From Escherichia coli O157:H7 (GTDB taxonomy: Bacteria; Pseudomonadota; Gammaproteobacteria; Enterobacterales; Enterobacteriaceae): DNA of 64,000 nucleotides. The stretch's first letter is position 1. Every line of letters begins with the position of its first letter. Location of the stretch: the NCBI RefSeq assembly GCF_013167455.1, contig NZ_CP038328.1. One strand, written 5' to 3'. Both the position numbers and the translations under genes were made by a program. This document shows positions 58,412-59,518 of the stretch, piece after piece. Under the pieces are notes generated by a model. It did not search any database and was not told the DNA's origin. It saw nothing but the letters and a program-made list of their open reading frames with translations.

Positions 58412-59518
58412 TTATTCTAATTTCGGAAAGGTAAAGAAAATATTAATGTATCTTATTAATTTATCATATTGTTCTTGGGTGAATGCTGTTTGCACACCTT
58501 CAGGGCAATATTTACCAGTAATAACCAGTTGCCCATTGCTGTGTTGTACCATTAAACCTTCTTTTTCCTTTGGATCTACAAACTTAGAATTATCAAATGT
58601 GAAGATATTTTTTTCCTGTTTTGAGTAAGCAAAGAAATCTCGTGTATAGCTGAAACTATCATTTATTAATGGTGCTAACTTTTTGTCGGTGATATCGATA
58701 AGCTCACCACTTAATTTATTGATGTATTTCATTTGGTTCAATTTTTTCTGCGCTTGTACAATTTGCTTGTAGGTATTTTTAATTTCCTTAGAAGAATTCT
58801 TGAATTTATCATAGCGTTCCTCGGAGGATGCGTATTTGTACCATTCTGTATTTTTTCTCAGAATGTAGTAGCAGGTCTGTATATTTCTTTGATCGCTGTA
58901 AAGTTGACTTTTAATACTTTCCTTACTGCTGGTTTTATAAGGTTTATCAGAGCTGTTTATTTTTGAAATGTATTTTTCTGTCGGTGACTGGACCGTGTTG
59001 TGGATATTTTCTTTTATAACATGTTCATTGATGATGTTAATTGCAGTTTCATATTCATTTAAGTTTATTGTTCTTTGTGAAATAAACCCTTCTTTGCTTT
59101 CGACACTCAAAATACCTTCGTTGTTTTCACCTCGGGTAAAGGTAAGGGTATAGGGTTCATAATCCGCTGCAAATTCATTTTTATACGTTATGACATGTTC
59201 GACAAAATGTCTTATTGGTACGAAACCATAACTGTGAACGTCAATTTTTTGGGTCTTGATACTATCAATTGCATCTGAGGCTTTCGTGAAAAAAGCCAAT
59301 AAATTAGCTATGCTGTCTGTTGAGGTTGATAACCCGTATCTACTTTGAGATATTTTTAGAAACTCATCGCAAAAAAACTCAAGTTTGGCGGTTTGTTGTG
59401 ATTCTTTGTAAATTTCTGTTGGTTGCAATTTATTATTTTGTAAAATATTACAGCGAGATAAGTGAATAGATGTATTTGGCATAAATGATTCCTTGTATTG
59501 TGAGTTAACAAGATACAA
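58412..59518 (-). CDS. hypothetical protein, AT-rich orphan ORF of unknown function
   Basis: 368-codon ORF, strongly AT-rich by eye relative to flanks, Lys/Asn/Ser/Tyr-rich hydrophilic product, no signal peptide or TM segment, no motif I recognise. Confidence 0.6.
   Translation of the reverse strand: MYLVNSQYKESFMPNTSIHLSRCNILQNNKLQPTEIYKESQQTAKLEFFCDEFLKISQSRYGLSTSTDSIANLLAFFTKASDAIDSIKTQKIDVHSYGFVPIRHFVEHVITYKNEFAADYEPYTLTFTRGENNEGILSVESKEGFISQRTINLNEYETAINIINEHVIKENIHNTVQSPTEKYISKINSSDKPYKTSSKESIKSQLYSDQRNIQTCYYILRKNTEWYKYASSEERYDKFKNSSKEIKNTYKQIVQAQKKLNQMKYINKLSGELIDITDKKLAPLINDSFSYTRDFFAYSKQEKNIFTFDNSKFVDPKEKEGLMVQHSNGQLVITGKYCPEGVQTAFTQEQYDKLIRYINIFFTFPKLE

Follow-up and report, generated by a model that had tools for sequence, protein, structure and literature searches.

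We analyzed a 64,000-nucleotide stretch of the Escherichia coli O157:H7 chromosome (contig NZ_CP038328.1 of assembly GCF_013167455.1), hereafter called the window, and focused on an orphan gene that lies on its minus strand between glpQ and the gene of the LysR regulator z3495. A first-pass annotation had described here an open reading frame (ORF) of 368 codons (58412..59518), AT-rich and of unknown function. This ORF exists as described if its codons are counted from a TTG. The RefSeq coding sequence (CDS) in the same frame begins at an ATG at position 59482 and encodes the 356-residue protein WP_001301786.1. Since this ATG and the Shine-Dalgarno sequence AAGGAA ahead of it are invariant in nine alleles, the 356-residue protein is the likelier product, and the extension from the TTG, which has no Shine-Dalgarno sequence, to the ATG is probably untranslated. 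E. coli O157:H7 chromosomes match the segment at 100% identity, and the counterpart of the gene in strain Sakai, ECs_3123 (NP_311150.1), is annotated as a hypothetical protein.

The orphan gene is contained in an AT-rich block of 1.7 kb, hereafter called the islet, that is present in some genomes and absent from others. The islet extends from the glpQ terminator hairpin to the stop codon of z3495, with limits that are good to about ±4 nt only, because of microhomology at the junctions. The annotated neighbors are glpTQ, the LysR gene, a major facilitator superfamily (MFS) gene, inaA, and nrdAB, with no integrase or tRNA among them. The G+C content is 32.4% in the ORF and 33.5% in the whole 1.7-kb insert, compared to 45.8% in glpQ, 42.9% in the LysR gene, and 51.2% in the 64-kb window. 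The compositional trough first noticed by eye is thus real, although the LysR gene is itself well under the ~50% that had been assumed for the neighbors. In K-12, a 207-bp LysR remnant, yfaH, is all that lies between inaA and glpQ, in agreement with the initial impression that the ORF has no counterpart there.

The orphan ORF is a constrained coding sequence

At the base composition of the ORF, 7.7% of codons are expected to be stops, so that the probability of finding 356 open codons is ~4.6e-13; the five alternative frames each contain 17 to 39 stops. All 356 codons stay open in O157 as well as in eight further alleles, which diverge by up to ~7% at the nucleotide level and 17% at the amino acid level; the ORF is thus not a piece split off a larger known gene by a frameshift. 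Among the eight E. coli alleles, we counted at least 127 substitutions, none of which creates a stop codon. Because 4 to 6% of random substitutions would do so, this outcome has a probability of 5e-4 to 5e-3. Indels followed the same trend in these eight alleles, with five independent events in 686 bp of spacer sequence and no uncompensated one in the 1071-bp ORF.

We then estimated the ratio of nonsynonymous to synonymous substitution rates (dN/dS) by the Nei-Gojobori method with binomial p values, masking the compensated frameshift of the O157 allele that is described below (the scar). The ORF gave values of 0.44 to 0.56 in the most divergent pairs (p 0.002 to 0.05) and of 0.44 to 1.0 depending on the pair, and its C-terminal domain gave ~0.3 (p 0.01 to 0.03 in several pairs). 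Since the corresponding values for glpQ and inaA were 0.02 to 0.2, the constraint on the orphan, at a dN/dS of ~0.5, is real but weak. A comparison of O157 with Escherichia strain TW10509 had pointed to an ORF evolving faster than its non-coding flanks, but this did not hold across nine alleles, the linker described below excepted. Overall, these data show that the orphan ORF is a real, constrained coding sequence.

The orphan gene is restricted to Escherichia

The orphan protein had no significant match in Pfam, in NCBIfam, in PHROGs, or in the PDB, the latter searched both by sequence and by profile, and no family of PADLOC-DB v2 matched it at an E value of ≤1. Of 5.8 billion protein clusters, a word-indexed search retrieved 23, every one from Escherichia and 79 to 99% identical to the orphan. 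An exhaustive phmmer (HMMER) search, run on 1.84 billion representatives, yielded nothing but Escherichia fragments and three weak, sub-threshold matches. None of the three was retained as a remote homologue: the matches to P0035 and P0036 span ~45 residues of long repeat proteins, and P0037 is an error-laden copy of the orphan gene itself, even carrying the O157 scar frame. Similarities to TarA (E = 0.013; 15 bits, the cutoff being 350 bits), DUF7615 (0.21), and the coiled coil of Val-tRNA synthetase (0.17) were dismissed as noise. A 408-residue protein from a European Nucleotide Archive metagenome (P0023) shares 98% identity with the orphan over about a third of its length and in addition carries the cytidylyltransferase-like domains PF01467 and PF05636; it is probably a chimera created by metagenome assembly or by gene calling.

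A tblastn search of 50,697 phage records gave no match, and the plasmid collection gave no true one, its single match being a mislabeled chromosome of 4.9 Mb. The record in question, NZ_CP141089.1 (H116), is classed as a plasmid in PLSDB and does contain the orphan; we consider it a chromosome because of its size of 4.94 Mb. A scan of 100,044 prokaryotic species representatives, with one genome per species, found a single locus, on a 3474-bp contig (JAIJJM010000334.1; L006) of a metagenome-assembled genome named 'Collinsella sp.'. On this contig, the orphan, at 93% identity, lies beside a 292-codon ORF that matches the LysR gene in length and relative position. We therefore rejected an occurrence of the orphan in Collinsella and regard the contig as mis-binned E. 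coli DNA.

Overall, the orphan gene is restricted to Escherichia, with no detectable homologue beyond the genus. Its description as a gene of unknown function stands, since the family, PDB, protein-cluster, phage, and plasmid searches led to Escherichia relatives only and no library produced a confident match to a well-characterized family. All public sources name the protein 'hypothetical' or 'uncharacterized' only.

The islet is an old polymorphism of the Escherichia chromosome

We counted the states of the site over 5426 complete E. coli genomes. The islet was present in 1052 and absent from 4374 (81%), and 3189 genomes, including K-12 and BL21, displayed a clean empty junction in which position 58224 is joined directly to ~59934, such that only a few bases separate the glpQ terminator hairpin from the LysR stop codon. 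About 1,200 genomes fitted neither the present nor the empty state. In the B2 strain NC101 (L016, 3566-3767), the one of these that was examined, glpQ and inaA are ~200 bp apart, and the orphan, LysR, and MFS genes are all missing. The NC101 spacer contains 103 bp of unique sequence, and homology to the window restarts 19 bp ahead of the stop codon of the MFS gene (62148). What is seen here may be left over from an MFS gene once present; the same arrangement may be common to the ~1,200 genomes of neither state.

All the orphan alleles examined lie at one site, with inaA and glpQ on either side, and the loci examined differ by the presence or absence of the orphan alone, never by an alternative cargo. 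The orphan has been kept in spite of a K-12-type deletion of the LysR and MFS genes in L003, L005, L011, L012, and TW10509, and the reverse arrangement also occurs. The orphan and the LysR/MFS pair thus vary independently.

The islet has diverged to the same extent as its surroundings. Synonymous divergence in the ORF was 0.06 to 0.17, compared to 0.02 to 0.13 in the flanking genes, and the nucleotide diversity (pi) of nine alleles was 0.046 in the ORF, 0.035 in glpQ, and 0.031 to 0.048 in the spacers. Strain TW10509, which we take to belong to the cryptic clade I of Escherichia, has the islet at the same place, and its identity to O157 is 93.1% in the ORF and 93.0% in glpQ. The common site, the flank-like divergence, and the TW10509 copy indicate that the islet is old, has diverged in step with the neighboring sequence, and did not insert recently. 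We also rejected a mobile element, since the islet has no terminal repeats and neither phage nor plasmid copies were found, nor is there an integrase or tRNA in the annotated neighborhood. The horizontal acquisition proposed in the first-pass annotation thus needs qualifying: the deviant composition and the presence/absence polymorphism agree with it, but any such acquisition was ancient, the flank-like divergence arguing against a recent transfer, and no hallmark of mobility accompanies the islet. Whether there was one ancient insertion or a repeated spread of a deletion, the outcome is a long-lived polymorphism shuffled by recombination.

O157 alleles carry a compensated frameshift that affects annotation

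Alignment of nucleotide and protein sequences revealed that the O157-type allele has lost one nucleotide in an A-run and gained one in the next A-run, 34 nt apart. Eleven codons (residues ~199 to 209) are consequently re-read, RNIQTCYYILR replacing KKYTDLLLHSE, before the C-terminal domain is back in frame. Since all the more divergent alleles, including that of TW10509, share the non-O157 reading, we conclude that it is ancestral. The Prokaryotic Genome Annotation Pipeline (PGAP) flags the orphan as 'frameshifted' in L007, L008, L009, and L011, each of which has an intact 356-codon frame (ORF at 2501-3571). These flags are false and arise because the O157 allele, with its compensated scar, serves as the reference protein in RefSeq; many further non-O157 genomes beyond the four checked are likely mislabeled in the same way.

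Allelic variation is concentrated in the linker between the two conserved domains (residues ~158 to 197), where pi peaks at 0.143, compared to 0.01 to 0.06 elsewhere in the gene. The E. coli-type and TW10509-type linkers differ at 31 to 32 of 120 nt (~26%), and the remainder of the gene at 0 to 5 per 60 nt (3 to 7%). Synonymous and nonsynonymous changes are both raised in the linker (dS 0.6 to 0.86, dN ~0.3), which could reflect either diversifying selection or the import of a patch from a homologue outside the sample. In addition, the L003 allele is a mosaic, nearly identical to TW10509 in its 5' two-thirds and to the E. coli type in its 3' third, and recombination between lineages has therefore taken place within the orphan gene.

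The orphan gene is dispensable

Among 60 evenly spaced carriers, we found the orphan interrupted by IS1 in 12, frameshifted in 2 (by -4 and +1 nt), and partially deleted in 1, so that about a quarter of the sampled carriers have a disrupted copy. The IS1 insertion lies ~309 nt from the orphan stop and is of identical size throughout (e.g., JS316, L018, 1810-2568; H71-H82). This uniformity suggests that the IS1 carriers form one lineage, probably a single successful clone. True frame breaks are confined to some strains, namely, L010, L012, and the IS1 lineage. The orphan gene is thus dispensable. In TW10509 (L014), the sole lesion is a single A added to a homopolymer run (~59288 in window coordinates), which splits the gene into calls of 70 and 232 residues and could be a homopolymer sequencing error, not a true pseudogene.

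Predicted features of the orphan protein

The 356-residue protein has a mass of 41.6 kDa and a pI of 8.4 and is rich in Lys, Ile, Ser, Glu, Asn, Thr, and Tyr. Its first 160 residues are acidic (pI 5.35), and the linker and C-terminal domain are basic (pI 9.1 to 9.4). The product had been described as hydrophilic, and this was borne out by a grand average of hydropathy (GRAVY) of -0.67; the scan for transmembrane-like segments found none (KD19 maximum of 0.86). Conservation defines two blocks, at residues ~20 to 160 and ~210 to 356, on either side of the variable linker, and the best-conserved stretches are residues 77 to 157 and 258 to 300. In low-confidence models, the N-terminal domain is predicted to consist of three helices, a three-stranded meander, and a further helix, residues 184 to 256 to form a long helical, coiled-coil-like stretch, and the C terminus to be an alpha/beta region.

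The best-conserved part of the N-terminal domain contains the motif HFVEH. The H-x-x-E-H pattern is kept in all of the 15 or more allele sequences, one of which (L007) reads HYVEH, and either HxxEH or HExxH would be expected by chance ~0.02 times in a protein of this composition. We regard the motif as a lead only. An internal duplication, hinted at by a DNA repeat encoding ASSEERYDKF and AFTQEQYDKL, was rejected, the N-terminal and C-terminal halves matching each other in BLASTP with an E value of 45.

Flanking spacers and expression signals

The positions of all features are listed in Table 1. Downstream of the ORF, the 3' spacer folds with a z score of -2.5, which is accounted for by two terminator-type hairpins, namely, a candidate terminator of the orphan transcript and the glpQ terminator, the latter being probably bidirectional. 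Upstream, the sole match to the sigma-70 consensus is weak, and since the scan gave 4 sites compared to the 7.8 expected from shuffled sequences, we do not take it as evidence of function. A 2-nt indel just past its -10-like element distinguishes O157 and L007 from the other alleles. A structured RNA in the upstream 463-nt spacer was rejected (no Rfam match, fold z of -0.34), as was a 72-codon upstream ORF (59552-59770) considered as a partner gene, which contains stops in L004 and L014. More generally, there was no sign of a toxin-antitoxin partner, since no conserved small gene is adjacent, Rfam gave no match, and the upstream spacer does not fold beyond expectation. Between the LysR stop and the orphan, the scan of the minus strand revealed nothing resembling a terminator. 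Transcription might therefore conceivably read through from z3495 into the orphan, but genomes that have lost z3495 still keep the orphan, so such read-through cannot be required.

As regards the surrounding genes, z3494, an MFS gene located at 60976-62166, and z3495 together constitute O-island 97 (OI-97), and z3495 activates the enterocyte effacement locus (LEE) (PMC10819331). On the other side of the islet, the mechanical ORF of glpQ (57055-58188) begins at a TTG at 57055 (377 residues), and the annotated GlpQ begins at an ATG at 57112 (358 residues).

Table 1. Features of the orphan gene, the islet, and the adjoining sequence in window coordinates
Feature	Position	Strand	Basis
Orphan CDS	58412..59482	-	RefSeq CDS; frame open in 9/11 alleles; dN/dS ~0.5; no stop among at least 127 substitutions
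Shine-Dalgarno sequence AAGGAA	59489..59494	-	6 nt ahead of the ATG at 59482; read from the sequence; invariant in 9 alleles
In-frame upstream extension to TTG (start in the first-pass annotation), probably untranslated	59483..59518	-	TTG without Shine-Dalgarno sequence; RefSeq start is the ATG
AT-rich 1.7-kb presence/absence block (islet)	58225..59933		Empty-site junctions; G+C 33.5%
Compensated frameshift scar of the O157-type allele	58851..58886	-	Nucleotide and protein alignments
Hypervariable linker (residues ~158 to 197)	58892..59011	-	pi peak, allele differences, dS/dN
HFVEH motif (residues 92 to 96)	59195..59209	-	Motif scan; predicted helix 90 to 104 in low-confidence model
Hairpin ACCGGTTA...TAACCGGT, candidate terminator of the orphan transcript	58249..58274	-	3' of the ORF stop; RNA fold and sequence
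G+C-rich hairpin, glpQ terminator and left edge of the islet	58201..58224		Just after the glpQ stop; fold and sequence; kept in K-12
Weak sigma-70-like match TTGGCC-18-TATATT	59815..59844	-	No other consensus match upstream of the ORF; distance to the ATG ~330 nt
LysR regulator z3495, outside the islet	59946..60824	-	RefSeq annotation; PMC10819331

Weighing the explanations

Taken together, these data make it probable, in our judgment, that the orphan is a true protein-coding gene that is ancient, confined to Escherichia, under weak constraint, dispensable, and of unknown function. Several points weigh against this reading. A dN/dS of ~0.5 is high for the ORF, that of the N-terminal domain alone is not significantly below 1, and in nucleotide diversity the ORF does not fall below its non-coding flanks. 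The selection tests comprised eight to nine recombinant alleles, and the pairwise dN/dS statistics are weakened because the alleles are few and recombinant. With a shallow alignment, AlphaFold2 reached a predicted local distance difference test score (pLDDT) of 40 and a predicted template modeling score (pTM) of 0.24 for the full-length protein and a pLDDT of 45 for the C-terminal domain alone. Both models are unusable as evidence of a fold, and the best Foldseek match of the full-length model in the PDB (E = 0.047, TM scores of 0.12 to 0.18) was meaningless; given the low confidence of both models, the domain architecture is drawn from conservation and predicted secondary structure only. The gene is not mentioned in the text of the searched literature nor in the searchable supplements of enterohemorrhagic E. 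coli papers, and the H-NS silencing proposed below is something we infer from the AT content only. Finally, frequent loss is also what would be expected of a decaying relic, that is, an anciently acquired xenogeneic gene that has lost its function and is drifting to loss, its frame being still open in most carriers because the relaxation is recent. In favor of such a relic are the dN/dS, which ranges up to 1.0 by pair and is not significantly below 1 in the N-terminal domain, the equal diversity of ORF and flanks, the 81% of genomes without the gene, the ~25% of sampled carriers with a disrupted copy, including the whole IS1 lineage, and the tolerance of an 11-codon re-reading. However, the open frame has survived at least 127 substitutions (P ≤ 0.005), there is no uncompensated indel in the ORF compared to five events in the shorter spacers, the O157 frameshift was compensated and not left open, the C-terminal domain has a dN/dS of ~0.3 (p 0.01 to 0.03 in several pairs), and the E. 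coli and TW10509 types, 7% apart in nucleotides, are both essentially full length. We therefore hold the relic to be unlikely. That there is no gene at all, but a chance ORF in AT-rich spacer DNA, is barely credible: the lack of homologues, of a confident fold, and of retrieved expression evidence would fit, but the probability of such an open frame is ~5e-13, the other frames contain 17 to 39 stops, the frame is conserved over 7% nucleotide divergence, the Shine-Dalgarno sequence and ATG are conserved as well, and dN/dS is below 1.

Readings that assign the protein a specific function fared less well. The suggestion of a defense protein, toxin, or effector made by the first-pass annotation found no positive evidence, be it a PADLOC match, a partner gene, a defense-island or mobile context, or a named homologue; it was not refuted either. 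A stand-alone anti-phage protein of the abortive-infection type, or another conflict protein, of a new family, in which the linker and coiled coil would sense and a conserved domain act as effector, would account for a single AT-rich gene without homologues and for the long-lived polymorphism, the recombination, and the hypervariable segment, which resemble balancing or diversifying selection. Many single-gene abortive-infection proteins are without recognizable domains, which the orphan would fit. We nevertheless consider this quite improbable, since no PADLOC model matched, neither here nor at the other loci examined does the gene lie in a defense island, prophage, satellite, or integrative element, no alternative cargo exists at the locus, there are no phage or plasmid copies, and the linker excess extends to synonymous sites, which speaks for an imported patch and not just for positive selection. 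Still further down in probability is a substrate of type III secretion, through the LEE or the E. coli type III secretion system 2 (ETT2), encoded on a backbone islet. Consistent with it are an AT-rich ORFan adjoining z3495, a LEE activator (PMC10819331), and, suggestively only, the first 22 residues, which are rich in Ser, Thr, Asn, Gln, Pro, and Ile and contain no acidic residue. The single B2 genome inspected (NC101) also lacks the gene, and B2 strains, to our knowledge, are without ETT2. Against an effector, the protein has neither similarity to a known effector nor an informative name, the gene is intact in many E. coli genomes not labeled O157, it belongs to the chromosomal backbone, unlinked to prophages or exchangeable effector loci, and it varies independently of z3495; nor, as far as we know, does it appear in the published O157 effector inventories. 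We give equally little credence to a metal-dependent, 'inverzincin'-like hydrolase acting through the HFVEH motif (HxxEH) of the N-terminal domain. The motif is single, its H, E, and H are invariant in all alleles, and it would lie in a predicted helix of the most conserved stretch, with a chance expectation of ~0.02. This figure is, however, uncorrected for multiple testing, many short motifs being possible, neither Peptidase_M16 nor any other peptidase profile of Pfam matched even at an E value of ≤10, no PDB profile matched, and the structure model is too poor for its fold or the geometry of the motif to be judged. Any specific mechanism for the orphan protein would thus, at best, have a low probability.

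Comparison with known systems

The orphan segment resembles the O-islands of O157:H7 in that it is absent from K-12, low in G+C, made up of a single gene, and directly adjacent to OI-97, from which a ~250-bp yfaH backbone remnant is all that separates it. By island numbering it would presumably be OI-98. Enterobacterial ORFans are short, AT-rich, fast-evolving, and often H-NS-bound accessory genes. The orphan resembles them in having no homologue beyond the genus, a G+C content of 32% in a region of 51%, a raised dN/dS, a patchy distribution, and frequent losses, but it differs in being long (356 residues), in having two conserved domains and a compensated frameshift, in having resided long at one locus, and in having no prophage link.

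With single-gene abortive-infection and other defense proteins, it has in common a stand-alone, AT-rich, polymorphic gene for a protein of ~350 residues with a variable segment and no recognizable domains; it differs from them by the lack of a model match, of a defense-island or mobile context, and of alternative cargo. The HxxEH pattern resembles the active-site motifs of the M16 family (pitrilysin/insulysin), and the orphan shares this five-residue pattern, as H-F-x-E-H, in a predicted helix. Unlike the M16 inverzincins, however, the orphan has no Peptidase_M16 profile similarity and is far smaller than their two-domain clamshell, and a downstream Glu ligand could not be assigned.

Proposed organization and biological meaning

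Returning to a genuine, weakly constrained gene, we propose that its product would be a soluble, cytoplasmic 41.6-kDa protein in three parts. The N-terminal domain (residues ~20 to 160), which is acidic, would contain a helix with the near-invariant HFVEH and, after it, a beta-meander. The linker, which is basic and hypervariable and tolerates the re-reading of 11 residues, would in part form a coiled coil, and the basic C-terminal part (residues ~210 to 356), the most strongly constrained of the three, would be an alpha/beta domain. The gene is under weak purifying selection and is repeatedly lost by deletion, IS1 insertion, or frameshift, and its alleles recombine between lineages. Its AT-rich DNA suggests that it is probably silenced by H-NS and expressed under certain conditions only. 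The role of the protein would most likely be that of a conditional accessory, with a conflict or niche function, rather than a housekeeping one, and we may speculate that it acts on its own, its activity residing in the conserved domains and its specificity being set by the variable linker.

The orphan of O157:H7 is thus catalogued yet uncharacterized, and, as an ordinary lineage-restricted, weakly selected accessory ORFan, it will not surprise specialists. Its intact alleles that are mislabeled as frameshifted distort pan-genome and pseudogene counts.

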